A stretch of 64,000 nt of DNA, taken from IMG/VR virus record IMGVR_UViG_3300045911_000567, positions 12,914-76,913 of that record, one strand, 5' to 3'. The notes below the pieces were generated by a model. The model had not been told where the DNA came from and searched no databases. It was given only the letters and a program-made list of their open reading frames with translations. This document shows positions 6,585 through 63,508 of this stretch, piece after piece; position 1 is the first letter of the stretch, and each line of letters opens with the position of its first letter. The DNA comes from a virus. The translations under genes and the position numbers were made by a program.

Positions 6585-7463
6585 TCACGTCAACTTTTTA
6601 TGATCGTCTAATGCTTTTTTTAAGACTTTAATCTCAGATTTGGATATTTCTCCATCGGAAATTATTTTATTGACAGTTTTCAATAGTTTAAGATAATGGT
6701 ATTTTTCAAGAAGTTTATAAATTACATTTCCAGGAAGATAACTATTAGTTCCGTATGTTCTTATTTCTTCGGGTGTCAAAGTTTTATTATATGCATCTTC
6801 GCGTTTGGTCTTTATGTCATCATAAATCGCACTAATTTCTTCTGCATTTAGTTCCATATCTTCGATTGTCTGCTTTAACCTCTGTTTCAGTTGTCTTGCA
6901 TCTGCATCGGTCATATTTTTTATGGACTCGTAATCGAATAAAACATCATCTAATCGATCTGCAAGTAAATCGATTGCTTTAACTTTGTCGGCGTAATCTT
7001 GTAAATATAACTCTATCGAAAATTTTATATCTTTCGGTTTTTTGATAAACTCGTTATTTTTAATATCAAAAGATGCGTCAGCGGCTTCTGTTTTTCTTCT
7101 TTCATATTCTTTTGCATCATTCATAATAAAATAGTTAATGGGATAGGGCGTATTTTTATATTTTTTCCCTGATATTTTAGAAGTTATTTTTTTACTCTTC
7201 TCTAAGTCTTTTTCGGCTACAAGAACCGTGACATCTATATCACTATTTTCATCATATCTAAGAGTTAATATACTTCCAAGAAGTACATAGTCAAGTACCT
7301 TAACTTCAGCTACCAGCGGAGCCATTCTTTTAAGAATTTCATCACGTAAGTCGTCTTTTAATTTTGGATTAACCGCATTGGGGTCTTCGAATATATCAGG
7401 CGAAAGACTATCTTGCCTTTGACTTATTATAGACTCTTCGATGTAAGTACTAAATCGTTTCAT
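6585..7463 (-). CDS. Pol-beta-superfamily nucleotidyltransferase with capsid-targeting-like N-terminus
   Basis: LLGSI..SDIDV motif and later PINYF strand; start MKRFSTYIEE downstream of CTAAATA. Confidence 0.75.
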   Translation of the reverse strand: MKRFSTYIEESIISQRQDSLSPDIFEDPNAVNPKLKDDLRDEILKRMAPLVAEVKVLDYVLLGSILTLRYDENSDIDVTVLVAEKDLEKSKKITSKISGKKYKNTPYPINYFIMNDAKEYERRKTEAADASFDIKNNEFIKKPKDIKFSIELYLQDYADKVKAIDLLADRLDDVLFDYESIKNMTDADARQLKQRLKQTIEDMELNAEEISAIYDDIKTKREDAYNKTLTPEEIRTYGTNSYLPGNVIYKLLEKYHYLKLLKTVNKIISDGEISKSEIKVLKKALDDHKKLT

Positions 7464-7479: not shown

Positions 7480-7486
7480 TATTTAG
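7480..7486 (-). promoter_or_regulatory. gp55-type late promoter CTAAATA
   Basis: Variant of T4 TATAAATA, 16 nt before the ATG at 7463; the motif recurs before other late genes. Confidence 0.65.
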
Positions 7487-12842: not shown

Positions 12843-13057
12843 TCGTCTCCGGTCGTCAGTCTTTTTGTCAACAGTTTTAAAAACTCTTCATCGGTTACTT
12901 TTTTTCCACTCAATTCAATTTGTTTTTGCAAACGGTCCGCTTCTTTTATGATTTTTTCGGCAAGTATAGGTCCGGTAGATATTCCTCTACTAAAGCCAAG
13001 ATATTCCCCCCACAAAAAAGAAAGTAAGCACAGTATCAGTGTCAATATTGTCAACAT
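12839..13057 (-). CDS. Small membrane protein
   Basis: N-terminal hydrophobic helix; overlaps neighbours. Confidence 0.55.
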   Translation of the reverse strand: MLTILTLILCLLSFLWGEYLGFSRGISTGPILAEKIIKEADRLQKQIELSGKKVTDEEFLKLLTKRLTTGDE

Positions 13058-25342: not shown

Positions 25343-26101
25343 TTATCTTTCTAGCAAATAATCTTTAAATTTCTTTTTAGGAAGTTTCTTAACTATCGGT
25401 TCTTGCAAACCAGCAACGCCGCCGGCGCCTACTGAATTAGCAGGAATATCTTCTTCAACTTTTTTGAGTCTTGTATAATAATCCGGCTTTTCTTTCAGGT
25501 GTGCCAGCACTATTTTGGCTAAATCTTCTTTTGTATTCGCTACACGAAGTTCTGGATCTGTGCTATGTTCTTGTTCAACCTCCAGCCCTTGTCTAAATTG
25601 ATTCAAATCGACTTTGGTCCAATCCACGCCCAATCTATTGCCTATTTCCTGTGCTTCCTGCTTTGAAATTTTTTCTATCTTTTCTTCAAGTAGTGCTAAA
25701 TGATTAAGAGCAGAAATATTTTCTTGTAGTAGTTGCAGTTGATTTGTAAAACTGGAATATAATAGATCAATGTCTTCATATTTTTCGAGATTATTCTCTT
25801 CTTTCAGCAAAAATAGTGCGGCGGCGAAATTTGCAAGACGAGTCCTGCCAGCCGGTAGTTTAGATATGATTTTCTTGAGGTTGAGAATTATCACATCAAA
25901 AATAGTAAATGATAATTTTTCTTCGCTTTTGGTGAGAGTGCTGCGTTTTCTGAGTATATTTCCTTCGGCATCTATAATACCAAATTTATATGCCTTCCAA
26001 TTCGAAAAAGGCGTAGCAAGTCGTTTTATAAACTGATAAATCAAAAAAGAATCGAATACAACCGACTCGTTAATTAATTCCGATTTGAGTTTATTCCTCA
26101 T
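25343..26101 (-). CDS. Conserved T4-like putative virion protein with inserted DUF5661-like domain
   Basis: YQFIKRL..PF..W.AYK.GIID..GN.L; GLEVEQEH..AHLKE.PDYYTRL; EEDIPANSVG tail. Confidence 0.7.
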   Translation of the reverse strand: MRNKLKSELINESVVFDSFLIYQFIKRLATPFSNWKAYKFGIIDAEGNILRKRSTLTKSEEKLSFTIFDVIILNLKKIISKLPAGRTRLANFAAALFLLKEENNLEKYEDIDLLYSSFTNQLQLLQENISALNHLALLEEKIEKISKQEAQEIGNRLGVDWTKVDLNQFRQGLEVEQEHSTDPELRVANTKEDLAKIVLAHLKEKPDYYTRLKKVEEDIPANSVGAGGVAGLQEPIVKKLPKKKFKDYLLER

Positions 26102-26514
26102 TAGATTTGCCTCAGTGCAGCAGCAATTTTCATGTCTATGGGTATATCACTACTAATAATTGGTTTATCGTCTATTCCATAAATTACCGAAGGCATATAA
26201 TTTAGAAAAACCAAAAAAGTCTTTAGCTGCACCCAGAACTTTTTGTTCACTTTATAAAACAAAATTTTGGTTGCGGCTTCTGGACCAAAGACATTATAAA
26301 GCACAATGATATGATTTAGAATCAATCTCTCTTTCAGTTCGCCGTCCATAACATAACGATTCAATAGTCGTTTGATGTATTTAATTCTGGTCAGATCATC
26401 ATGAAATTCTTTAATATCAAGACAGCCAGGATTATTGTATGCCTTCATCGCATACATCATGAAACTATCTTCTGTTAGACACTCAAATCTTGGATCGAAT
26501 CCCATAGCAAACAT
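26101..26514 (-). CDS. Conserved T4-like phage protein
   Basis: YAMKAYNNP.C..EF.DDL.RIKYIKRLL, ERLILNHII.LYNVF. Confidence 0.8.
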   Translation of the reverse strand: MFAMGFDPRFECLTEDSFMMYAMKAYNNPGCLDIKEFHDDLTRIKYIKRLLNRYVMDGELKERLILNHIIVLYNVFGPEAATKILFYKVNKKFWVQLKTFLVFLNYMPSVIYGIDDKPIISSDIPIDMKIAAALRQI

Positions 26515-26521
26515 TTATTGC

Positions 26522-27343
26522 TTACGGAACTACTCTGGTTCCAGCTCCTTGTGCCAACGCAGCCGTAATAGTCAATATCGCCGATTGTGCTGTATTTGCA
26601 GTTCTAACAATTGTACCAGAGATTGACTGTGCATCAATTGATAGTTCTGCGCTTTCGGCAGGAACGGTTCCTGCAAAAACAACTTCAGTTGTGTTCAATT
26701 GCTGCGATGCTGTTAGAATTATTGGACCTAGTGTTCCATCTGTAGTGAGTTGCAAAGTTGCTCCTGCCGAAGCATCGACCTCCTCACTAAATGTAACTGC
26801 TACGCTCACAGGATCGTTTTGTTGCAAGGATGCTTGTACGAATTGAACATCTTCGATAGAAACTTCGACTAACGGTATTATCCTGGTTCCAGCTGCCGTA
26901 ATTGCAGATACAGGAACAACCAAGTTAGTAGCAGTATTGTCGGTTGCATCTTGAATTGCTCCTGTTAAGGGAGATGTTACAGCTAATGTTACTTCTTCGC
27001 TTTCTAGTGGAACTGTTCCACTAAATACTGCCTCGTTCGTATTCAGTTGCTGTAGGGCGGTTAATGTAATTGGACCTAAAGGACCTGTGTTCGACAATGT
27101 TAAAGTTGCTCCAGCAGGAACATTAACCCTTTCATTGAATCTAACGGTTACAGAGATTGGATCTCCTTGTGCATATGATGTTGCATCGAAAGCTACTGAT
27201 AATACATCGCCAGGACCAGCTTTTGTTGTGAGCTTTCCTATGGCAACGAAGATTTCTCCGGTGTCAGGATCGACCCACCCCTGATCTGTTGCTACTGCGT
27301 TTGGTGCAAATGCTGGTGGTCCGTTTAAAGTCCATAATGGCAT
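26522..27343 (-). CDS. Virion structural or decoration protein with two Ig-like repeats
   Basis: ATDQGWV N-terminal motif; duplicated DP.SV.V.F.E.V..AGATL.L..GPI.LTA.QQLNT.E.VF.GTVP. Confidence 0.7.
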   Translation of the reverse strand: MPLWTLNGPPAFAPNAVATDQGWVDPDTGEIFVAIGKLTTKAGPGDVLSVAFDATSYAQGDPISVTVRFNERVNVPAGATLTLSNTGPLGPITLTALQQLNTNEAVFSGTVPLESEEVTLAVTSPLTGAIQDATDNTATNLVVPVSAITAAGTRIIPLVEVSIEDVQFVQASLQQNDPVSVAVTFSEEVDASAGATLQLTTDGTLGPIILTASQQLNTTEVVFAGTVPAESAELSIDAQSISGTIVRTANTAQSAILTITAALAQGAGTRVVP

Positions 27344-27359
27344 GGTATGTTACTCCTGA

Positions 27360-27917
27360 TTAAAATCCTAATTTTCTTAACTTATTTATCACTTCCGATG
27401 CCGATGTCCTTTGTATTGCTAGACCGCCGGCTGTTCTCCATTCATTGCAATTCTTATCGTAATCATCTATCAGTAGGTTTGGTTCGCCCTTGACATTTTT
27501 TGCAAATAACTGTTTTTGTGAGCGAGAAACCAAATGAATATTATCTACATTATTTATTCCAAGATGATCCTTAACCCATTGAAGTTTGTCGCGTTCGCAA
27601 ATGTCTCTATTCATTGAAGTTGTTGCACTCAAGATGTTTGGTTTGTATTTTTTGACTGCTTCCCATAATTTTTTGCCGTCTCTTAACCATCTCAAAGTCT
27701 GCCAAAAGTTTGGTTGTTGATATATGATTGACCAGCGAATATCATTAGCTTCGGTTTCGGAATATTCCTTAAGCCAAAATGAATGATGAAATTTCGGATA
27801 ACCAAATTTTTCTAAAATTTGATCTGCGCCTCTAGTAAAATCAACCAAGGTTTCGTCTAAATCCAGATATATTGTGGGCAAAGATTTGTCAATAATATAA
27901 GATTTCAAACTTTTCAT
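27360..27917 (-). CDS. HAD-family 5'(3')-nucleotidase-like phosphatase
   Basis: YLDLDETLVDF, ILSA, K..W, LIDD..N..W..GG.AI. Confidence 0.85.
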   Translation of the reverse strand: MKSLKSYIIDKSLPTIYLDLDETLVDFTRGADQILEKFGYPKFHHSFWLKEYSETEANDIRWSIIYQQPNFWQTLRWLRDGKKLWEAVKKYKPNILSATTSMNRDICERDKLQWVKDHLGINNVDNIHLVSRSQKQLFAKNVKGEPNLLIDDYDKNCNEWRTAGGLAIQRTSASEVINKLRKLGF

Positions 27918-27931
27918 TATCTTAAATCAAA

Positions 27932-28531
27932 CTAATCTCTGTCATTTCCTTTGAATTGAGGCTGCTCATGCGGAAGATCGCCCATAGCATCAATTAATAA
28001 AGGAAGTAGAACAGATTCATAATTTTCATACACACTTAATATATCATATAGATCCTCTTTTCTCTTTGCTCCCGGAAGGTGAGGCGCAGGAATTATTTCA
28101 GGCATTCCTGTAGCATATGTCACTAGTGCTCTATAGGCTGTTCTTTCTGAATCGGGTCTAATATCGTCCGCTGCTCGTTGTGTCAAATCTATATCGGAAA
28201 TAATGTCGATGTGTTTCGGTAGATTCCTATCTCTCATTGTCACAGCAGATGCCGGTTCTTTGGAAGCGACCTGACACGATTCATTTACTGATGCTAGTTC
28301 GGATTCTTTTTCCTGTTCTGACTCAAGCTGCTCGTTTTCTTCTGCCTCATCTTTTGCTTCGGTTTCTCCTAGTGTAGGTAAGCCAGAATGGGCTGCGGTT
28401 TTTTTTGCTTTGCTAGTGCAGTCACACCCTTGTTCGTGCACAGTGCACGTTTGTTCGGATAAACTTTTGTTCAATATACTGGAAACCGCATCAATTAATG
28501 ATTGTGATATACCTAAATCTTTGAATGACAT
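27932..28531 (-). CDS. Acidic late protein (possible head internal protein)
   Basis: CTAAATA at 28556-28562 and AGGAG RBS; LSE/VNE sites. Confidence 0.6.
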   Translation of the reverse strand: MSFKDLGISQSLIDAVSSILNKSLSEQTCTVHEQGCDCTSKAKKTAAHSGLPTLGETEAKDEAEENEQLESEQEKESELASVNESCQVASKEPASAVTMRDRNLPKHIDIISDIDLTQRAADDIRPDSERTAYRALVTYATGMPEIIPAPHLPGAKRKEDLYDILSVYENYESVLLPLLIDAMGDLPHEQPQFKGNDRD

Positions 28532-28567
28532 ATTTCTCTCCTTGCAGTAGTATATTATTTAGTTATT

Positions 28568-28780
28568 TTAATCATCTGGCGATTTTTTCTTAGATTTATA
28601 ATCGGTTTGATAAAATCCCGATCCCTTGAAAATTGGGGCAGATACGACTGAAAGAACTTTAGCTATCTCAGATTGACAATACGGACAATTTTTGATCGCG
28701 GCGTCTGAGATTTTTTGCTGTATCTCAAGAATTCCACAGGACTTACATTCGTATTCATATAACGGCATATTGTCACTCAC
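28568..28780 (-). CDS. FmdB-family zinc-ribbon protein
   Basis: MPLYEYECKSC..CPYC..FKGSGFYQTDY. Confidence 0.88.
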   Translation of the reverse strand: MSDNMPLYEYECKSCGILEIQQKISDAAIKNCPYCQSEIAKVLSVVSAPIFKGSGFYQTDYKSKKKSPDD

Positions 28781-29202
28781 ATCACTTTTTTGACGGATCC
28801 GTTCGGTAGATAATGATATACTGCAACTTTTTGATTGAATCTTAATGCTTTCCTAATATTATTAGCTTTCATCACCGCACCAAGTTTCGTTTTTTCTTTT
28901 TCTGAAAAGAGTTGCTTTCCTCCTGCATCGTATACCACAACCACGAACAGATCGGATTGTTCTTGTACTACACTACCTAATTGTTCTGGATCGGCTTGCT
29001 CATTTGCTCTCTTCTCTGCATCTTTTCGTGCTTGATCCTGCTTGCGCTGTGCTTCTTTGGCGGCGAAATCTGCTCGTCGAGCTTGTTCTATCTCTCGGGT
29101 GTGTTTTTTTTGTAGTTGTTCTTTCTCTCGTTTCTGACGTTCCCGTACTTTTTGAGCTTGGGACTCAAACTCTTCTTGTAAGTATTTTCTAAATCGTTTC
29201 AT
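28777..29202 (-). CDS. Coiled-coil putative internal head protein
   Basis: MKRFRKYLQEE N-terminus; charged coiled coil. Confidence 0.65.
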   Translation of the reverse strand: MKRFRKYLQEEFESQAQKVRERQKREKEQLQKKHTREIEQARRADFAAKEAQRKQDQARKDAEKRANEQADPEQLGSVVQEQSDLFVVVVYDAGGKQLFSEKEKTKLGAVMKANNIRKALRFNQKVAVYHYLPNGSVKKVM

Positions 29203-30199
29203 AAATTTTTTTTCTAGTGCTATAACGAGATTTCTTTGCTAGATTCAATAATTCTCTTATATTTAGAGAAACGACATGAGCTATAACTTTTTGTTTTTCA
29301 TCTATATTTCTGAGTGCAAATAGTTGATGATGACCATCCAGAATATAATCATCTGACGAAACTACAAACGGCTTTTTAGCATCTGGATGTTTTTTGAAAT
29401 GCTCATATTTCTGTTTAACTTTTTGTAGATTTATTTCTGATTGAGTTGGCTTCAATTTGTCCAGTCGAATGTATTTTTTCGAGACTAAAATGCCCTGTTC
29501 TTTCAGTTCATCCAAAAAAGAGGATATGTCCCTCTCCGCAATCTGTGGCATCTCATTTCTGGTAAAACCTAATCCTTTTATTTTATGAATAATAGACTCG
29601 GCGATTTTCATACTCTTTTTCAATTCGTCGAACATTTCTCTGGCAAATCTTTCTGATAGACCAGATAGAGTCATCGAATAAAATGATGCAAAATCATTTC
29701 GTTTGACTGCATCTCGCACTCTGGAAGCCGAAAACCCTTCCACTCCTTCGGCATCGGGATCTCTCAAACCAGCCGAGATAACCGCAAAATTTTTAATCGG
29801 CAGTCTTTTACTCTTATCTGGATGGTTTATGTATTTCTTTATCAAAGTATCGAATTCGGATACTCTATCGGCTCCAACTACCATCACCAAATTTGCGTAG
29901 CCAATTGAATGTAGATATTGTATCACATCGAAGATTGTTTTGATTTGACTATTTGCTACGATATATTTCTTATGATTCGAAATTCCCATAGCCAGATATT
30001 TTATTTTCTGTTGATATGATAGGGGATTCTTTCTAATATCTTGAGTCTGACTTAAAAAAATAAATGGTGTGGCATTTTCTTTTCTGGAAACCAACAGCAT
30101 ATTTTCAATAACTTTCTCATGTCCTCTATGAGGAGGATTCATTCTACCGAAGGTAAATACTGCTTTTTTACCCGATAAAATTTCACTTAAAAATTTCAT
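29189..30199 (-). CDS. HIGH-superfamily (cytidyltransferase-like) nucleotidyltransferase fused to ParB/Srx-like domain
   Basis: FGRMNPPHRGH, VVGADRV, SAG.RDPD..SASRVR; C-terminal LKPTQ..ILDGHH. Confidence 0.8.
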   Translation of the reverse strand: MKFLSEILSGKKAVFTFGRMNPPHRGHEKVIENMLLVSRKENATPFIFLSQTQDIRKNPLSYQQKIKYLAMGISNHKKYIVANSQIKTIFDVIQYLHSIGYANLVMVVGADRVSEFDTLIKKYINHPDKSKRLPIKNFAVISAGLRDPDAEGVEGFSASRVRDAVKRNDFASFYSMTLSGLSERFAREMFDELKKSMKIAESIIHKIKGLGFTRNEMPQIAERDISSFLDELKEQGILVSKKYIRLDKLKPTQSEINLQKVKQKYEHFKKHPDAKKPFVVSSDDYILDGHHQLFALRNIDEKQKVIAHVVSLNIRELLNLAKKSRYSTRKKIYETI

Positions 30200-30201
30200 T
30201 A

Positions 30202-30744
30202 TTAATCTTTTACTATCGCGTCGTAATAGTTATGTCTTAGTTCGTGTTTTAGTAGATCGCTGTCTCTGATAATATCTCGTAAAACTAATTCAGCATCGCC
30301 GTTCTGGAGAGAAAATAGTAAAATTTTATTCGAATCTTTAGTTTGTTTAAGCATCTTGTTTATTGTTGAAAGGTCGAATCCATATTCTCTCAACTTATCT
30401 TTCTTGATTGCAGGAAGATTGGGATAAATTTTTACAGATTCTTTGAGTGAAACATCATTGGACTCGGAGAAACTCGCCGATGCTAAATCTGATACATTAT
30501 ATAATATATGAGATGGTTCAACGCCGTGCGATTTTACTATATGTTCTACTGCGGCTCTCAACGAAGAAAATCTTTCATTCTTATTGGTTACATAACGTCC
30601 CGATGGTCTGTGGTATGCTACTGCACCAACACGGGCTTTATTAACGTAAACTGCTGCAAATGCAACAGAACGATTTGATGCCAGCCTTTCTAGTTTGACC
30701 ACTGCACCTGACGACTCTTTAAGGTATGTGTTAAATTTTTTCAT
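30202..30744 (-). CDS. Putative internal head protein
   Basis: MKKFNTYLKES; CTAAATA at 30751-30757. Confidence 0.65.
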   Translation of the reverse strand: MKKFNTYLKESSGAVVKLERLASNRSVAFAAVYVNKARVGAVAYHRPSGRYVTNKNERFSSLRAAVEHIVKSHGVEPSHILYNVSDLASASFSESNDVSLKESVKIYPNLPAIKKDKLREYGFDLSTINKMLKQTKDSNKILLFSLQNGDAELVLRDIIRDSDLLKHELRHNYYDAIVKD

Positions 30745-30753
30745 ATACTATAT

Positions 30754-31485
30754 TTAGTTTGCTTGTTGCTTATATAAAACTTTGCTTATTTTACCTAAAT
30801 CTTCAATATTCGACGTTTTTGTGTCGTAGTTTGCCACAGTTTTATATGACCACTTCATATTAACTTTAAATCTATGGTGTAACTTAGTATCAATAACAAC
30901 AATCATGCCTTCTTTTAGTTTAGGAATAACCTTGCCAGATGTAAATAAATTTATGTGCTCAGAAGCGGGCTGCATGATTTCATTTTGTTTAGATAAAGGA
31001 AATAATGCTATAAAGTAATTGTCTATGTTCTCTTTTCTATAAATGAAGGCAATCATTGTTTTACTTGGAAGATGGTCATATTCATCGGGGTGGCCTGTAT
31101 GATCTATTGGAATATCCATCCCTAGTTTTTGACTAAACTCTTTTCTATATTTCTGAAATACAGGACCATGCATACCATAATCACTAATGCTATTTTTAGC
31201 GATAAAGGCATGTATCATTTCATGAGCCACAATCTTAGTCAAAGTTTCTTCTGTAAAATTCAGGGGAGCGATCACGATTTCGATTGTTTCAGGCAAAACA
31301 ACTCTGCTCTGTTTGTATATTTTATATGTAGTCAATCCCATTTGTTGTTTAGGAAGTTTACCGAATTTGATAGGGATTTCTTTGAGGGCACCATTAAAAA
31401 GTTTAGCATCAAGCTCTCGGTAAATCTTCTGAAGAGTAGCATTATCTTGGACTTTTTCTGTTATGAATTGCTTGAATTTTTTCAT
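30754..31485 (-). CDS. SprT-like zinc metalloprotease
   Basis: LFNG.L, HEMIH, HGPVF; MKKFKQFITE N-terminus; CTAAATA at 31493-31499. Confidence 0.8.
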   Translation of the reverse strand: MKKFKQFITEKVQDNATLQKIYRELDAKLFNGALKEIPIKFGKLPKQQMGLTTYKIYKQSRVVLPETIEIVIAPLNFTEETLTKIVAHEMIHAFIAKNSISDYGMHGPVFQKYRKEFSQKLGMDIPIDHTGHPDEYDHLPSKTMIAFIYRKENIDNYFIALFPLSKQNEIMQPASEHINLFTSGKVIPKLKEGMIVVIDTKLHHRFKVNMKWSYKTVANYDTKTSNIEDLGKISKVLYKQQAN

Positions 31486-33488
31486 AATAGTCTATTTAGT
31501 ACCTCTGGTACTGCCAAACCTTCGTTTCTTAGTGCTTCATCTGTTCCTTTTAGGATAGATTTAACCGCCTCTGGATAGATAAAATCTGGAGACAACACCG
31601 CCGAGAGAACTTTTTCGAATACCAGTAAATCTGAAGGAGAAAATTTAGGACCAAATAATAATTCTGTTATGATTTTTGGTGTAGTAGATATGAAAGCCGA
31701 CGATTTTGTCTGAAAATTTTTTGTTATGCCTCTTTTACCTTCTCTGGACTGGGTGGAAAAGAATAATCCCTTAGAATAATCTAATAGTAAGCGCTGTTGC
31801 TCAATTGGCTGTCCAGAATTTGATTTTGTTATTCTGAGTGCCACAAACTTTGCTATTTGATTCAATAATATATTTCTATAAATTCCTTTAAATTCACTTT
31901 CTGATGTTGCCGGACCATAATAAATCCATTCGCTATAATCCAAATTATTAACTAACATCAAATCAACCTGTACCGATTTATTGTGTTGTTTTTTATTTAT
32001 GTTTACAATCGGAAATGCGAAAGACACGATTCCAAGACCTCTACTATCTTTAACAGAAGCAGAAATTCGTTTAATCTTAGAAACAACAAAATCAAACAAC
32101 TCTTCTCTATTAAAGGATTTTGTACTCAAAATAGATTTAGCTGATATTGCTATGTCGATGTCACCAGAAGATTCTCCTGGCAATTTTTTTCCCGCCGAAC
32201 CCAGTACCCTGAGATCGCTTTTTTCTATATTTAAAACAGAAGAAACGGCGGATATGGCTGCTTTTATCGTCTCGGCTGCATTCTCTTGATCTAATCGCGA
32301 GACTCCTATTATTGCGTTTCCTCCTTCATTGAGTGAGGCATGGAAAGAAAAATTCAGTCGAGAGAATTCAAGTCTATCCACCAATTTTATCACACGACCA
32401 GATCTGCTATTAAGAGCAACAAAACCTTCCTGTCCCGTAACTCTGAAACCATCGCCGGTTTGAATGAAGGTGCTCATAGAAGATATTTGATTTAATTTTT
32501 TAAGAATGATCGATTTTAGTTCTACTATGTAAAGTTGATATTTTAACAACTCTACCAAACTTGATTGATTATCAACGAGAAATTTTATATGTCTTTCTTT
32601 TCCGTATGCAGACCTATACTTTGATGAAACATACTCAATCAGGCCAGGAATATCGGAAACTGTCATTTGCTTGCCCGTTCTCACTAATATATTGCTATAC
32701 GCCTTGACGTGGGTAGATATAGGAGAGTTAGATAATTCATCTGCGAATGACCGGATACTTTTTAGTGATTGTTTTGCCTTTTCTATTAATGAATTTAAAT
32801 ACGAAATTTCGGTTTTATTAAATTGAACGCCGGAACTTACATTTTTTAATGTTGCATCGTCAAACCAAACATCTTTTATTTTTTTCAGTTTGGTTATATC
32901 AGGGCTGAAGCTGGCTTTCATTTTGCTCATCTCGGAACCCTTATATTCGGTGTGCCATACTATTCCCAACTGGGCAGAGAGTATGTCTTTTGCTAAGGGA
33001 CTGTTGAGTGGAACGCCATACGTTAGGGTATTTGGTTTAAATAGCACCATTTCTTGACCATCTATTGAGTCCAGAAAAAGACTACTTTTAGTGAAGATTA
33101 CATCACCCTGTAGGACCCCTTTTATTCCCAGAGCCGGAAGAGTTGCCAGAGCAATTTTTAATATCTCTTGTACCCTGTCACTATTAGCATGATTTAACTC
33201 TATATCTTTTGGCGTAAAATTCAATTTTGGATTATTAGATAAAACAGCTTTTGTTCCAACAAAAAATTTCTTTGTTTTGGGATCAATTCCGGCAAAGATA
33301 GCAAGGGAGCCATCCCATTTAGTTGTAATCTTCGAATCAGAAACAGATCCCTCTAAATTTTTAATGATATCTGATAGAACATCGAGAGCATATTTTCCTC
33401 CTCGGGCACCATCATTAATGATGTAGTCCTCTACATGCTCAATGTGGGTATTTTTTGCTTCCGAGATGTATTGAAAAAACTTTTTCAT
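31482..33488 (-). CDS. Fusion of a ligase-fold (DUF6267-like) domain and a Pol-beta nucleotidyltransferase domain
   Basis: KNTHIEHVED, TKWDGS, LQGD, EGFV, KLVDRLEFS; after LNEGG come LGSAGK..SGDIDIA and VQVDLM. Confidence 0.75.
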   Translation of the reverse strand: MKKFFQYISEAKNTHIEHVEDYIINDGARGGKYALDVLSDIIKNLEGSVSDSKITTKWDGSLAIFAGIDPKTKKFFVGTKAVLSNNPKLNFTPKDIELNHANSDRVQEILKIALATLPALGIKGVLQGDVIFTKSSLFLDSIDGQEMVLFKPNTLTYGVPLNSPLAKDILSAQLGIVWHTEYKGSEMSKMKASFSPDITKLKKIKDVWFDDATLKNVSSGVQFNKTEISYLNSLIEKAKQSLKSIRSFADELSNSPISTHVKAYSNILVRTGKQMTVSDIPGLIEYVSSKYRSAYGKERHIKFLVDNQSSLVELLKYQLYIVELKSIILKKLNQISSMSTFIQTGDGFRVTGQEGFVALNSRSGRVIKLVDRLEFSRLNFSFHASLNEGGNAIIGVSRLDQENAAETIKAAISAVSSVLNIEKSDLRVLGSAGKKLPGESSGDIDIAISAKSILSTKSFNREELFDFVVSKIKRISASVKDSRGLGIVSFAFPIVNINKKQHNKSVQVDLMLVNNLDYSEWIYYGPATSESEFKGIYRNILLNQIAKFVALRITKSNSGQPIEQQRLLLDYSKGLFFSTQSREGKRGITKNFQTKSSAFISTTPKIITELLFGPKFSPSDLLVFEKVLSAVLSPDFIYPEAVKSILKGTDEALRNEGLAVPEVLNRLL

Positions 33489-33497
33489 ATAACATAT

Positions 33498-33504
33498 TAT
33501 TTAG
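33498..33504 (-). promoter_or_regulatory. Late promoter CTAAATA
   Basis: 9 nt upstream of the ATG at 33488. Confidence 0.65.
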
Positions 33505-33517
33505 TTCGCCCTGATGT

Positions 33518-34963
33518 TTATATGTCATCGTCATAATTGAAAGATCTAAATCTGCTGATCTTTTCGGCTTTCATTCGCAAACCGAACTGAGATTTATCAA
33601 ATGCTGGTGTATCTTTCTCTGCCTTGCGGTCGGATTGTTTTTTTTCTAAAAGATCACTTTGAGCACTTTCTTCTACATCATATAACCTCATTTTCGACCT
33701 ATCTATTCCTAGAATAAATCGTTTGTTAGACATTACATTATTATATCTATTCTTGAGTTGTTTTACTAATATCTGCCCCATCTTCTCGAGGTCTTCTGTA
33801 GAAATCAATGCTGCCATGAAATCTGCTGTTGCTGGCAATCCCCACGATTCTGATGTATGATCGAGATCGACATCATTGTTTGAAAACCCCTTGCGAGAAG
33901 TTTGGGTTGCCGACCAAATGGGAACATTCTGTTCTTGTGCAAGTCCTCTAAATTCTTCTGCTATCGCTTTAATATAAAGATAAGAATTGCTGCTTGCATC
34001 CGAACTAAGCCTTGATGATGCGGCTATATTCAAATAATCGACGAGAATAACATCGGGTATGAAATTCTTTTTGATCTTTAATTCATGAAGCAGTGCCCTA
34101 AAGTGCGTAACGGTTGCTGATGCCGTAGGATATTCTTTTATGATAATCTTACCTTTTGTTTTCGATCTAATTGCTTCTATTTTCTTGTCGTACACATCTT
34201 TAGGAAGAACTGCCAGGTCAACTATAGGAACATCTAAAAGGTTGGCATCAATTCTTTCTGCAATTCTTTCTTGTGACATTTCAAGCGTGATATACAAAAC
34301 ATTATAGCCGCGCATCATGTATGCACCGGCAAGATGGCATAAAGTCAGAGATTTGCCAATTCCGGTACTCGACATAAAGATATTAAGGGTTTTTCTCGGA
34401 ACGCCACCCCCAGTAATCTTATTCATATAATCTAAGTCGAATGGAAGTTTATCCTCGATATTACGATAAGATTGAAATCTTTCGTTGAAATCTTCCAAAT
34501 AGTTATGCCCGACACTGTTGTCGAATGTCACGGCAAGAGCATCCGAAAATAACTGTGGAATAACTGCTTTGCTCTTTTTGCCAGATTTGTCTTGCATAAT
34601 CTCTACCGTTGCCTGTGCGGCTAGATTAAATGCACAAAACTGGCACCATTTTTCTGTTTCTTTTATTAGAAAATCAAGATCACTGAAAATATCAGGTTTG
34701 GTCAATTTTGATATTGTGTCTTTTATACTCTTAAATGACGAAGTATCTGCGGTGGTATTATTCGAGAGTTTAATCATCAATCCTTCGATGGTAGGATTGA
34801 CATCATATGTATCTATGAAACTCTTTATTTCGTGAAAGATCGTTCGTTCGGCATAATCAAAAAAGTAATCTTCTTTGATATAAGGTATCACCCGTTTCAT
34901 GTATTCGGGATACCATATCAAATTCGTTAATATTACTAATTCAATCCTTTCATTCAGAAGCAT
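33518..34963 (-). CDS. gp41: Replicative DnaB-like helicase
   Basis: STGIGKS, YITLEM..ERI, VDYLNI, SATQT, SES.GLPATAD, KQLKNRY. Confidence 0.97.
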   Translation of the reverse strand: MLLNERIELVILTNLIWYPEYMKRVIPYIKEDYFFDYAERTIFHEIKSFIDTYDVNPTIEGLMIKLSNNTTADTSSFKSIKDTISKLTKPDIFSDLDFLIKETEKWCQFCAFNLAAQATVEIMQDKSGKKSKAVIPQLFSDALAVTFDNSVGHNYLEDFNERFQSYRNIEDKLPFDLDYMNKITGGGVPRKTLNIFMSSTGIGKSLTLCHLAGAYMMRGYNVLYITLEMSQERIAERIDANLLDVPIVDLAVLPKDVYDKKIEAIRSKTKGKIIIKEYPTASATVTHFRALLHELKIKKNFIPDVILVDYLNIAASSRLSSDASSNSYLYIKAIAEEFRGLAQEQNVPIWSATQTSRKGFSNNDVDLDHTSESWGLPATADFMAALISTEDLEKMGQILVKQLKNRYNNVMSNKRFILGIDRSKMRLYDVEESAQSDLLEKKQSDRKAEKDTPAFDKSQFGLRMKAEKISRFRSFNYDDDI

Positions 34964-60917: not shown

Positions 60918-62216
60918 TTACAGAAGATTGAGGATTCGGGTCTTTCTGTAGTAAACGTTAGCGTTTGCTACCAGAGAACCGTTTGAGTTACCAGCTAAGT
61001 TACCGAATGGATTCGTTACAATACCGTAACGAGTCTTAAATCCGATTTTCGGCTGGAAGCTGTTCTCCCCAACTGCTCTTAGCATCTGAAGGGGAACATA
61101 TGGACAGTAGAACAGTCCGGCATCATATTGATTTGCGCCTTTGAAACCTACAACCGCAAAGTTGAGGGTAAGAGGAGCATAAGGATCAATAAACACTTTG
61201 AATCGACCATTAAGCACTCCAACGAAGTTATTAGCAGTATCGTCTACGTTTAGGCTATCCTTGAGTGCACTATTGCAATCAAGAAGACCTGCTACACTGA
61301 GGGCAGAAGCAGTATCACTATCACAGATAATGAAGTTACCACGTCCTCTACGAGTTTGCTTTGCAATAGCATTTGCTTCGCGCTCAAGCTGAACCATCAG
61401 ACCTTTATACTTTTCTACCGACCAACGACCGTTAGAATCTACATCGAGGTTGAACTGTCCAGCAACCGCAACATCTTGTTGAGCACCAGGAACCGCGTTA
61501 TTGTAAATGACCCGGATTACCTCTCTGTTGATTTCGGCGAGGATCTCAGCAGAAAGAATATTAGCGAGTTCTGTTTCAGCATCAAGACCATGAACCGCTT
61601 TCAAATCTTGTGCGATTTCCATGGTGTATTCTGCTTTCAGAGCACGAGTTTTAGCTTCAACAACAACTTTATCGATGCTGAAAGCCATCTCAGGAAATTC
61701 TGGTTCAGGAGCACCAGTTCCAAGACCTTCACCATCAGCAGTTGAGATTCCTTCGCCGTAGTTGTTAGGACTGAAGGGGTCGAGTGTGTTTTGCGGACCG
61801 CCACCGGTGATTCCAGTTCCGGAGAAGAAGCTATCTGCTTCGAAGTGAAGTGCTTCGTTTCCGCCCTGAGAGGTATATCTGCTCTTAAGTGCAAAGATCA
61901 TTCCGGTTGATGCCTTCATCGGCTGAACACCACAAACATCAAACGCCATCAGGTTAGGCAGTGCTCGTCTCAGCAAAGAAATGAGAACCGGATCGTAACC
62001 TTTTAGGTTTGCGTTGTTATTTGGAAACCCCTGAGCGGCGTTAGCAGGAACAGCTTCGGTTAGAAGTCCGCCTGCCTTGCTCTCAATGAGCTCTTTCTCT
62101 TGGTTTTCAAGAAGAACTGTTAGAACAGCCCTCTTATGGGCATCTCTAATAGCAGGAAGATCTTTATGATCTAGCACTTTTGCCCATTTCTCTTGAAGTT
62201 GTTCGGTAAGATACAT
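60918..62216 (-). CDS. gp23: Major capsid protein
   Basis: DPVLISL.RR, GVQPM, RALKAEYT.E.AQDLKAVHGLDAE.EL, YCPYVPL, FQPKIGFKTRYG. Confidence 0.98.
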   Translation of the reverse strand: MYLTEQLQEKWAKVLDHKDLPAIRDAHKRAVLTVLLENQEKELIESKAGGLLTEAVPANAAQGFPNNNANLKGYDPVLISLLRRALPNLMAFDVCGVQPMKASTGMIFALKSRYTSQGGNEALHFEADSFFSGTGITGGGPQNTLDPFSPNNYGEGISTADGEGLGTGAPEPEFPEMAFSIDKVVVEAKTRALKAEYTMEIAQDLKAVHGLDAETELANILSAEILAEINREVIRVIYNNAVPGAQQDVAVAGQFNLDVDSNGRWSVEKYKGLMVQLEREANAIAKQTRRGRGNFIICDSDTASALSVAGLLDCNSALKDSLNVDDTANNFVGVLNGRFKVFIDPYAPLTLNFAVVGFKGANQYDAGLFYCPYVPLQMLRAVGENSFQPKIGFKTRYGIVTNPFGNLAGNSNGSLVANANVYYRKTRILNLL

Positions 62217-62248: not shown

Positions 62249-62256
62249 TATTTATA
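62249..62256 (-). promoter_or_regulatory. Canonical T4 late promoter TATAAATA for gp23
   Basis: Exact match; AAGGAG RBS downstream. Confidence 0.8.
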
Positions 62257-63508
62257 TGTTACGGTTTTTCACTTGTCTGGAAATAGCTTCTGCAACCAGA
62301 TCGGCTTCAGTCGAAACTTCTCTTTTTTCATGTCGATTGCTATCCAGACCGCCTTCTGCTAATAAAGATGCACTCAAGTCACCGGCTTGAGCAGATGCCT
62401 TAGCCGGGAAATAAGACTCTTTAATCACTTTCAATTTTGCTTTGAATGATTTTTCGTCATCAAACGCAAGATTTTCACAATATTTTGCAAACCGCACTCC
62501 ATCACTCTTAACAAGGTCTTCACTCAGCTCCCTGATAATAGCATTTCGTTTTAGGTCTGTTACCTCTTTACGAAGTTGCAGGTTTTTGAGATGGGTTTCG
62601 TTGAGTTCTCTTTCTAGTTCGGCAGCTTTATTTTCTGCTTCTACTAGAATATCTCGCTTAACCGATGGAACTTTAACATTATGATTTTCTAGTAATGTTT
62701 TCATGCCAGAGAAAAATTCTTCTGCAAGCTGAACCTTAATACCAGATTCGATGGCAACTTCATTTTCTTTTACCCACTCTTCGACCACATAATCAAGGTA
62801 TCCATCGACTTGCTCGGTTAGAGTTTCGGCAATTTTCTTTGTTCTTTTATTGAGTTTTTTAGCATAGATAGAAGAAAGTTTCTTTGCAATTTTAGCCGAT
62901 CTGTTCGCAACTATGTTTTTGATGGCAGCTTCAAAAAGAGCGCCAGCTTTAACTCTAAACTCTTCAGGAAGTTCCTCGTCATGAGTTAAAGATTCGACAT
63001 GCTTTTTAACATGTTCCTCTTCTTCTTCTTCGAGTTTTTTCTCTTCTTCTTCTAGTTCTTTCTCTTCTTCTTCTGAGAGTTTTTCGTCTTCTAATTCTTT
63101 AACGAGTTCTTTCTCTTCTTCTTCTGAGAGTTCTTTATCCTCTTCTTCTGCAACTACTTCATCATCGGAAGCATAAGATTCAAGGGCTTTAATTAGATCT
63201 TCTTCTTCTTCGGAAAAATGATCAGGCACTTGTTCAGCGGCATCAGAAGGATGTATAGGCAGTAATTCATCATGATGGGATGATTCATGCATTTCATCTT
63301 CTTCTTCTGGAATATGCACGGATTGTGCATTTCCATATTTGCCCGAAGCCTGAGCAACTGCATGACCGTCATGAGCAGCCTTGACAGCTCTTTTCCCAAG
63401 TTTTCCGAGAAGTGAATCTGGAACCTCCGAACTTGCATCAGAAGGATGAACAGGAAGATGTTCTTGATTTTCTCGCAGAGAACGCAATGTTTTTACTTTT
63501 GTTGGCAT
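62252..63508 (-). CDS. gp22: Prohead core scaffold protein
   Basis: LPEEF..KA..LFEAA, VDGYLDYVVEEW..EN.VA.E.G, IKESYF; upstream of gp23. Confidence 0.93.
   Translation of the reverse strand: MPTKVKTLRSLRENQEHLPVHPSDASSEVPDSLLGKLGKRAVKAAHDGHAVAQASGKYGNAQSVHIPEEEDEMHESSHHDELLPIHPSDAAEQVPDHFSEEEEDLIKALESYASDDEVVAEEEDKELSEEEEKELVKELEDEKLSEEEEKELEEEEKKLEEEEEEHVKKHVESLTHDEELPEEFRVKAGALFEAAIKNIVANRSAKIAKKLSSIYAKKLNKRTKKIAETLTEQVDGYLDYVVEEWVKENEVAIESGIKVQLAEEFFSGMKTLLENHNVKVPSVKRDILVEAENKAAELERELNETHLKNLQLRKEVTDLKRNAIIRELSEDLVKSDGVRFAKYCENLAFDDEKSFKAKLKVIKESYFPAKASAQAGDLSASLLAEGGLDSNRHEKREVSTEADLVAEAISRQVKNRNI

Follow-up and report, generated by a model that had tools for sequence, protein, structure and literature searches.

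Enzymes of a marine T4-like phage share an N-terminal peptide that probably acts as a T4-type capsid-targeting propeptide

Phage proteins that enter the cell together with the DNA are active before the first phage gene is read, which makes them front-line tools of counter-defence and take-over. To our knowledge, such proteins are almost unknown outside the T-even coliphages and a few giant phages, and their discovery needs virion proteomics of cultured phages. In the T4 record (NC_000866), the internal proteins IPII and IPIII start with MKTYQEFIAE and IPI starts with MKTFKEFTS. As the work of Mullaney and Black is reviewed in PMC9026906, this capsid-targeting sequence (CTS) acts in targeting mainly at residues 4 and 7 and in processing at residues 8 and 10, and an Asp at position 10 blocks cleavage while targeting is kept (PMC9026906). 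Tag-based discovery of ip genes is established practice in T-even phages (Repoila 1994, as cited in PMC12373910). According to PMC9026906, the large T4 enzyme Alt, an ADP-ribosyltransferase, is packaged into the head and trimmed by gp21; once ejected, it acts ahead of phage gene expression. In the giant phages phiKZ and SPN3US, many ejection proteins, enzymes among them, carry N-terminal propeptides that are cut after Glu by a T4-type (gp21-like) protease. Here, a 64,000-nucleotide stretch of virus DNA (the window; positions 12,914 to 76,913 of IMG/VR record IMGVR_UViG_3300045911_000567) was analysed, in which a gene cluster at 27360-33504 and one distant gene encode proteins, most of them enzymes, that begin with a common peptide of about ten residues (the tag). 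We estimate at roughly 70% the probability that the tag is a T4-type capsid-targeting propeptide, its mechanism being taken by analogy from T4. The mechanism is already known from T4; literature searches returned no paper linking a capsid-targeting tag to marine T4-like phages or to DUF6267, the domain that follows the tag in the largest protein.

The tag M-K-[KR]-F-x-x-[YF]-[IL]-x-E heads five minus-strand genes, at 31482-33488 (MKKFFQYISE), 30754-31485 (MKKFKQFITE), 30202-30744 (MKKFNTYLKE), 28777-29202 (MKRFRKYLQE) and, at a distance, 6585-7463 (MKRFSTYIEE). Degenerate forms were found on two further genes, MKFLSE at 29189-30199 and MKSLKSYIID at 27360-27917. Near-identical N-termini on neighbouring genes and on the distant gene had been pointed out in an earlier note on this DNA, with IPIII as the T4 reference; five strict and two weaker starts were read, and the IPIII peptide was as it had quoted. 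The proteome-wide scan proposed in that note was run, and the pattern [FY]xx[FYH][IL]xE began at residue 4 in 5 of the 108 proteins of the contig, compared with 0.03 expected from the internal frequency of the motif in the proteins (Poisson P = 2.7e-10). The note had also asked whether the motif is equally common in replication proteins; the tag start was absent from the replication and recombination proteins of the contig (gp41, gp43, gp44, gp45, gp46/47, UvsX, UvsW, gp55, gp61 and Nrd). For the four cluster genes with the strict tag, the tag ATG is the first ATG, GTG or TTG past the upstream stop. The gene at 6585-7463 has an alternative GTG 20 codons upstream of the tag ATG, and a CTAAATA motif falls downstream of that GTG. 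Conserved tag positions use differing codons (ATC, ATA, CTT, TTA and ATC at residue 8; AAG, AAA or CGA at residue 3), indicating that conservation or selection operates at the peptide level.

A further tag-like gene, encoding 230 amino acids on the minus strand, was found outside the window at contig positions 5144-5836, 7.1-7.8 kb before the window start. It starts with MLKKFKKHLLNE, in which the tag is one residue longer, carries AATAAATA 39 nt upstream and has tagged homologues in L118; it probably encodes further cargo of this phage. A tag-like motif was also seen at the other end of a protein: the 252-residue product of window 25343-26101 (minus strand), which has a DUF5661 domain and an N-terminal part common to Melnitz and two loci, ends in KKLPKKKFKDYLLER. 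Such an ending might be left over from the start of a downstream gene that became fused, or might be a propeptide at the C-terminus like that of T4 Alt.

The virus contig that contains the window is 76.9 kb long and has a CheckV completeness of 47%, and almost all of its genes are encoded on the minus strand. The contig carries a T4-like myophage gene set (gp41 helicase, gp43 polymerase, clamp, clamp loader, gp46/47, the late sigma factor gp55, UvsW, UvsX, gp61, gp22 and gp23). Its closest isolate is Methylophilales phage Melnitz (gp23 61% identical), followed by Stenotrophomonas phage DLP_6, Pelagibacter phage HTVC008M and cyanomyophages; the source is a marine, T4-like phage of a Kyanoviridae-like lineage. 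The gp41 replicative helicase gene (33518-34963, minus strand) forms the upstream boundary of the cluster, and in relatives the slot between gp41 and gp61 holds tagged genes.

The comparison with T4 extends from the tag to its predicted cleavage site. The invariant positions of the tag in the window are residues 4, 7, 8 and 10, the same four that are defined for the T4 CTS, and the degenerate tag of the HAD-family protein (MKSLKSYIID) has a terminal Asp. Five genes carry the peptide of about ten residues exactly, and the contig encodes a T4-type prohead core with gp22 and with a gp23 that has an [LI]xE propeptide site. The major capsid protein gp23 (60918-62216, minus strand; TATAAATA at -40) has its cleavage site at E54 (codon 62055-62057), and the maturation sites align as GSFLTE|AE in T4, GGLLTE|AV in the window and SAFLSE|AA in Melnitz. 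The gp22-type acidic prohead scaffold protein (62252-63508, minus strand; TATAAATA at -42 and -48) has 18 [LI]xE sites. The gp21 protein of Melnitz itself starts with MKLIAE...EYITE|AKE, and many cargo tags end likewise. A gp21-type protease is encoded by the relatives Melnitz, HTVC008M and S-CREM2 and by one uncultured contig rich in tagged genes. A 113-residue open reading frame (ORF) at the contig end showed no similarity to the ORF that lies between gp21 and gp22 in HTVC008M, and a radical S-adenosylmethionine (SAM) partner for the tag system was looked for on the contig and was not found.

A DNA-pattern scan for the tag in T4 recovered ipII, ipIII and the uncharacterised gene 61.1. Gene 61.1 (NC_000866 18966-19130, L088:1467-1631, minus strand) encodes 54 amino acids starting with MKTFKEFIKE and sits between genes 41 and 61, where the window has its tagged cluster. 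Its product may be a fourth internal protein of T4 that has so far escaped notice.

The tag was followed in related phages in two sets of loci, 80 loci fetched with gp41 and 160 related loci in all. The 80 gp41 loci contained the pattern at residue 4 in 32 proteins, compared with 0.12 expected, and the 160 loci contained 268 tagged proteins in at least 96 sequence families. The tagged proteins of Melnitz include QZI94969, QZI94970, QZI94971, QZI94972 and QZI94981. Homologues of one protein were found with and without the tag. DUF6267 proteins were tagged (most often MKFSEYITE|AKEGKNVH) or untagged (MATKTDKNVH; the cyanophage S-RIM44 protein starts directly at the domain). Among stand-alone Pol X-like homologues, 71 of 120 (about 60%) had a tag-like N-terminus by a loose pattern, for example M[KL]xFKxYIKE|GGNA, and others start with MGGNA. 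For the 292-residue nucleotidyltransferase (NTase) at 6585-7463, the majority of 17 other homologues start with MKTFLEYLxE|SIIDP. In some families the register of the tag is off by one residue while the aromatic-x-x-aromatic-[IL]-x-E spacing is kept. The SprT-like protein and the 180- and 141-residue proteins of the cluster had no homologues in the 160 loci, indicating that the tag is also placed on lineage-specific cargo. On some contigs of uncultured phages, which CheckV rates about 50% complete at 126-144 kb, tagged genes reach 16 of 28 in a cluster. Such arrays (L156:1-15100, L149:3800-19600, L147 and L157) comprise up to 16 consecutive genes of 50-430 amino acids that start with MKHI(x)TFE(x)F(L/I)NE, a 13-residue tag variant ending in LNE, and one of these contigs encodes a gp21-type protease within a 634-residue ORF, together with gp23. 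No clear co-variation with the tag ending was seen in gp23 of the distant contigs rich in MKHIxTFExFLNE-led genes.

Late expression of the tagged genes is suggested by the motifs that precede them. The first base of a late-promoter-like CTAAATA lies 13-23 nt before the ATG of four tagged genes, at 33498-33504 (16 nt before 31482-33488), 31493-31499 (before 30754-31485), 30751-30757 (before 30202-30744) and 7480-7486 (before 6585-7463). Further copies lie 64 nt before 28777-29202 (at 29260-29266) and 31 nt before the untagged gene 27932-28531 (at 28556-28562), all on the minus strand. The earlier note had assigned an own CTAAATA to three cluster genes and to the distant gene, which was exceeded by the four tagged cluster genes, the distant gene and the one untagged gene seen here. 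It had also suggested a check for enrichment of the tag among genes with late promoters: in the gp41 loci, 22 of 46 tagged genes (48%) had TAAATA in the 60 nt upstream, as did 135 of 1431 other genes (9%; P = 8e-11), the motif being most common in the canonical form TATAAATA. The corresponding counts on this contig were 4 of 5 tagged and 12 of 103 other genes, and the other genes so preceded include gp22, gp23, a lysozyme-like gene and further genes that look late. A sigma-70 promoter and terminator scan of the cluster gave the shuffled expectation.

The most direct evidence on packaging comes from the cyanophage S-CREM2 (Kyanoviridae), for which Table 3 of PMC10665884 gives 52 of 221 ORFs as detected by mass spectrometry in virions purified on caesium chloride (CsCl). 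Our own ORF calls over 97% of the S-CREM2 genome gave 254 ORFs, 48 of them in that virion list, and were compared with it by Fisher test. A whole-record pattern scan yielded three strict-tag genes, ORF6 (SAM hydrolase, MKDFDSFLEE), ORF136 and ORF154 (cytidylyltransferase, MKNFSSFLTE), and all three (3/3) were in the published virion proteome (P = 0.006). The relaxed set adds an APH-like kinase ((V)KRFDAFLTE) and gp13 (MKDLHSFLTE), and 5 of 6 relaxed-tag genes were in the published list (P = 0.001); nine neighbouring genes absent from that list had no tag. The gene for gp154 is preceded by TATAAATA, and its protein is homologous to the product of window 29189-30199 (E = 7e-20). These tagged proteins, among them the non-structural SAM hydrolase, APH-like kinase and cytidylyltransferase, are called possibly encapsulated by the S-CREM2 authors (PMC10665884); mention of a shared tag or of the T4 CTS was not found in the text of that paper and its term-searched supplement. 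The 869-residue virion protein gp12 of S-CREM2 (L177:4705-7314, minus strand), annotated in that source as a Cas9-like endonuclease, carries LRFASFMAE|A at residues 17-25, which suggests a mis-called start or a longer propeptide.

The largest tagged protein, of 668 amino acids (31482-33488, minus strand), appears to join two enzymes. Behind the tag (residues 1-10, 33459-33488) lie a DUF6267 domain (residues 13-382, 32343-33452; Pfam E=4e-91), a disordered linker with L386-N387-E388 (32325-32333) and a C-terminal domain (residues 389-668, 31485-32324). The AlphaFold2 model had a mean predicted local distance difference test score (pLDDT) of 92, with values below 50 only at residues 5-13 (tag) and 379-388 (linker) and above 90 in the folded domains that flank them. 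For the DUF6267 domain, VIA-align gave the RNA ligases 5cot (Z 7.8), Trl1 (7.0), T4 Rnl2 (6.9) and T4 Rnl1 (6.6); in all, six RNA ligases matched at Z 6.2-7.8 over 179-205 residues, middling values that were obtained with a two-domain model. The motifs of covalent nucleotidyltransferases accompany the adenylyltransferase fold, and K57-W-D-G, E354-G and the motif V lysine K368 were invariant in 31 sequences. Sequence searches of the PDB with the 668-residue protein and the DUF6267 profile gave nothing meaningful; the ligase call rests on motifs and fold. The fold match alone would not be decisive; together with the motifs it points to a predicted RNA-ligase-like domain, which sharpens the 'ligase-fold enzyme' named in the earlier note.

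The C-terminal domain, which the note had read as a Pol-beta NTase, is predicted to be a minimal Pol X with palm and thumb. VIA-align matched it to Tth Pol X (Z 11.0, root-mean-square deviation 3.2, 164 residues aligned), TdT (10.6), Pol beta (10.3) and African swine fever virus (ASFV) Pol X (10.3, 164 of 176 residues), all matches spanning palm and thumb, and Foldseek matched it to Pol beta with E = 5e-5. The catalytic residues of family X polymerases, GS(430)...D-I-D(443-445) and D510, are in place on a palm that is followed by a thumb, and the G, S and three D residues were invariant in 30 sequences. As in ASFV Pol X, an 8-kDa or fingers domain was not seen; the matches of the C-terminal domain begin at the palm, from residue 142 of Pol beta onward.

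The linker between the two domains reads ...FHASLNE|GGNAI, and stand-alone Pol X-like genes have tag|GGNA at exactly that place, indicating that the linker holds the relic of a tag, which is likely to serve as a second cleavage site. Judged from this sequence match, the protein is probably also cut at L386-N387-E388, which would free the RNA-ligase-like enzyme from the minimal Pol X as pieces of about 43 and 31 kDa. P0002 and P0123, the closest homologues of the halves (each about 51% identical), are separate proteins, both recorded on contigs of 31,999 bp. Further [LI]xE motifs in the 668-residue protein lie in confidently folded helices, except two in disordered segments. Other fusions were seen among the related loci: DUF6267 is joined to a cytidylyltransferase in L010:3521-5524 and L011:14043-16172 (667 and 709 amino acids, with junctions PVTE|K and YLLE|A), PHROG 455 likewise models a DUF6267-cytidyltransferase fusion, and L145:9998-13174 encodes an untagged Pol X and ligase-like fusion of 1058 amino acids.

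The remaining cargo was assigned by domain matches and catalytic motifs. The 243-residue product of 30754-31485 is an SprT-like zinc metalloprotease with Pfam SprT-like at 36.9 bits (cut-off 25.6) and the HExxH sequence HEMIH at residue 88. The 336-residue product of 29189-30199 (minus strand) combines a HIGH-motif, cytidylyltransferase-like NTase (HRGH at residue 24; CTP_transf_like PF01467 at 23 bits, cut-off 21; PHROG cytidyltransferase E = 6e-50) with a ParB-like domain (DGHH at residue 288; ParBc_2 at 26.4 bits, cut-off 23.6), and its orthologues have full-length tags in place of MKFLSE. The 185-residue product of 27360-27917 (minus strand) is a HAD-family 5'-nucleotidase-like protein with the DxDxT sequence DLDET at residue 19 (Pfam NT5C at 30.7 bits, cut-off 24.8; PHROG 5'-3' deoxyribonucleotidase E=1e-24), and its relative in L127 has the full tag MKKFKEFILE. 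The SprT protease, HIGH NTase, ParB-like domain and HAD phosphatase proposed in the earlier note thus hold. Its distant Pol-beta-type NTase, of 292 amino acids at 6585-7463, was upheld in the invariant GS(63-64)...D75-x-D77 and tentatively refined to an MNT/ANT-like protein; Pfam matches stayed below cut-off and Foldseek matches to MNT antitoxin and ANT enzymes were weak (E 5e-3 to 3e-2). Its VIA-align list was filled by the helical hairpin of the model, and tag residues 1-13 of its predicted structure had pLDDT below 50. The two Pol-beta-type NTases of the window were not detectably paralogous to each other.

Two tagged proteins lack a functional assignment. The 180-residue protein (30202-30744; mature isoelectric point (pI) 9.4) had no Pfam or PHROG match, and an atlas search gave weak look-alikes and no usable lead. 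The 141-residue protein (28777-29202; mature pI 9.8) is basic and rich in coiled coil. Two untagged genes lie inside the cluster on the minus strand, encoding a zinc-ribbon protein of 66-70 amino acids (28568-28768; Pfam Zn_ribbon_8 E=2e-13) and the acidic 199-residue protein with its own CTAAATA (27932-28531). Pfam at E up to 5 returned nothing for the 180-, 141- and 199-residue proteins. Mature cargo forms are mostly basic, with pI 9.0-9.8.

Just downstream of the cluster, 26522-27343 (minus strand) encodes an Ig-like repeat protein with GATAAATA upstream, a homologue of the 'putative S-layer protein' of Melnitz. It is followed by a DUF7207 protein at 26101-26514 (minus strand) with homologues in Melnitz, S-RIM44 (N-terminal similarity) and S-CREM2 (gp159). 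Both look like conserved late genes.

By analogy with T4, the virion probably takes up the tagged enzymes and releases them along with its DNA. In such a course, the tagged genes would be transcribed late from TAAATA-type promoters, and the amphipathic 10-mer, with its aromatics at positions 4 and 7, would dock the cargo on the gp22 scaffolding core of the prohead. A gp21-type prohead protease would then cut after Glu10 ([IL]-x-E), and the mature, mostly basic proteins would remain in the head and exit with the DNA at the next infection. We infer packaging, cleavage and ejection in this phage, as well as the roles of the enzymes after entry, from the T4 precedent. The proposal of T4-type capsid-targeting propeptides on late-expressed enzymes, made in the earlier note, gained support from the four CTS positions, the gp23 and gp21 sites, the portability of the tag, the late motifs and the S-CREM2 proteome. 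In composition the payload resembles a kit for healing and sealing the ends of nucleic acids, with ligase-like, Pol X, HAD nucleotidase/phosphatase, SprT, HIGH-NTase plus ParB and MNT-like NTase members and two unknowns.

Several observations weigh against capsid targeting. As to the tag, 2 of the 7 are degenerate (MKFLSE and MKSLKSYIID), and strict tags were not found in HTVC008M or cyanophage S-RIM44, which indicates that the tag is not universal in the family. No Peptidase_S77 (PF03420) match, expected for the gp21 prohead protease, was found on the 47%-complete contig, whose end falls just past gp22. As to late expression, CTAAATA shows no enrichment over the contig as a whole (16 copies, compared with about 29 expected). 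In the ligase, Pol X and cytidylyltransferase families, the presence of the tag did not correlate with an own TAAATA motif; this within-family test is neutral, and that correlation was not used as support. The motifs at 30751-30757, 31493-31499 and 33498-33504 end only 6-9 nt ahead of the ATG, and mRNAs made from them, if they are late promoters, would carry next to no leader; these three genes are without a Shine-Dalgarno sequence. No terminator was found between gp41 and the cluster, so that early read-through transcription is possible. As to the virion, presence of tagged proteins is established in the relative S-CREM2 and carried over by analogy to this phage, virion mass spectrometry can also detect contaminants, and the published S-CREM2 data hold no N-terminal peptides to show tag cleavage. 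As to the cargo, untagged forms occur: a DUF6267 gene in cyanophage S-RIM44, a Pol X-like gene in Lak phages (Prevotella phage Lak-A1, L175:3004-3969), and the ligase-like and Pol X-like pair beside the helicase in Sinorhizobium phage Phosso. In Phosso, a 469-kb jumbo phage, the ligase-like (KLDGS) and Pol X-like genes lie just downstream of a DnaB-like helicase gene (L174:1788-3840). The pair looks like an ancient module with a wide distribution among phages, and its untagged state in Phosso, together with the untagged DUF6267 of S-RIM44, indicates that its ancestral role may be cytoplasmic, in replication or repair.

In one alternative, the tag would dock a cytoplasmic partner (for example clamp, single-stranded DNA-binding protein or helicase) and so recruit repair enzymes to the replisome, or would serve as a degron that times turnover. 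The named cargo consists nearly entirely of nucleic-acid enzymes whose genes are placed between those of the gp41 helicase and the gp61 primase, and this alternative would accommodate the untagged pair at the Phosso helicase, early co-transcription from gp41 and the failure of the tag to track its own late-promoter motif within families. It leaves aside, however, that the tag equals the T4 CTS at the four functional positions and ends in the cleavage motif of gp23 and gp21 in this clade, that it heads dozens of small unrelated proteins, as many as 16 out of 28 in a single cluster, that late-promoter motifs are enriched at tagged genes, and that tagged proteins of S-CREM2 are listed as physically present in virions. 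A replisome-docking role fits the data worse than capsid targeting, and we regard it as improbable.

About as unlikely is that the cargo is loaded in the prohead core and trimmed, but acts only in head assembly or DNA packaging, or is degraded and expelled. Most T4 core proteins (gp22, gp67 and gp68) are described as being cut to pieces and leaving the head (PMC9026906), and several further [LI]xE motifs lie within the DUF6267 domain. Against this stand the confidently folded helices that hold most internal [LI]xE motifs of the 668-residue protein, and the persistence of the S-CREM2 homologue and other tagged enzymes in mature CsCl-purified virions, as listed for that phage. A third reading gives the peptide no role and takes the shared start for a feature of the nucleic acid, such as a cassette for translation initiation, or for promoter plus start, that recombination has spread. 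In its favour, CTAAATA and ATGAAA stand near each other in four window genes without a Shine-Dalgarno sequence. It is contradicted by the codon variation at conserved residues, by a motif-to-ATG distance that ranges from 13 to 64 nt, by relatives with the same peptide pattern on quite different DNA and promoter spacing, and by families in which the register shifts by one residue with the aromatic-x-x-aromatic-[IL]-x-E spacing kept, and is very hard to sustain.

Beyond capsid targeting in this phage, the tag might serve Kyanoviridae and further uncultured phages of the T4 superfamily as an address label that is general and portable, here delivering a repair kit that acts before phage expression; we put this forward tentatively, as possible rather than probable. 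If true, a large unexplored set of injected proteins would exist, with at least 96 families in the 160 loci sampled and as many as 16 of 28 genes in a single cluster. The kit would hold the ligase-like enzyme and Pol X freed at LNE|GGNA, a phosphatase, SprT and two NTases, and its target would be the incoming genome or host-cleaved RNA, before any phage gene expression. A payload of nucleic-acid healing and sealing enzymes, not of small inhibitors, would be a new kind of phage payload; repair enzymes are carried in a comparable way in the virions of some large eukaryotic viruses. With a tag that predicts packaging, injected proteins could be recognised directly in the metagenomes of uncultured marine phages, and on the published S-CREM2 list it picked 5 virion proteins in 6 calls. 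Phage engineering beyond T4 would also gain a packaging signal that is both natural and modular. Two relatives, Melnitz and S-CREM2, have been cultured, which makes the claim directly testable.

Compared with described systems, the window stands closest to the T4 internal proteins, with which it shares a ten-residue M-K-x-aromatic-x-x-aromatic-[IL]-x-E peptide ahead of unrelated mature parts, late expression signals, mostly basic mature proteins and a gp22/gp23 head with [LI]xE cleavage. Those proteins of T4, a Tequatrovirus, inhibit GmrSD restriction and are small and without enzymatic activity, whereas the window cargo consists mostly of enzymes of 20-73 kDa in a marine, Kyanoviridae-like lineage and includes a two-enzyme fusion with a second cleavage-type site. 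T4 Alt resembles this cargo as a packaged enzyme, but its propeptide is different and has 7 residues, its C-terminus is also processed and its chemistry is another, as described in PMC9026906. The propeptides of phiKZ and SPN3US are 80-130 residues long and, unlike the window tag, are not conserved as a short tag. In S-CREM2, which belongs to the same family as the nearest isolates, virion-associated enzymes share the tag, with TATAAATA upstream of those examined, whereas its published virion list has no ligase-like or Pol X-like member. The DUF6267 domain shows a fold match to nick-sealing RNA ligases (T4 Rnl1 and Rnl2, Naegleria NgrRnl and fungal Trl1) and has their KxDG, EG and motif V lysine, and the C-terminal domain has the GS...DxD...D and the palm plus thumb of minimal family X polymerases such as ASFV Pol X. 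Unlike the known ligases and Pol X enzymes, the two are fused here in one polypeptide behind a putative capsid tag, without sequence similarity to solved structures.

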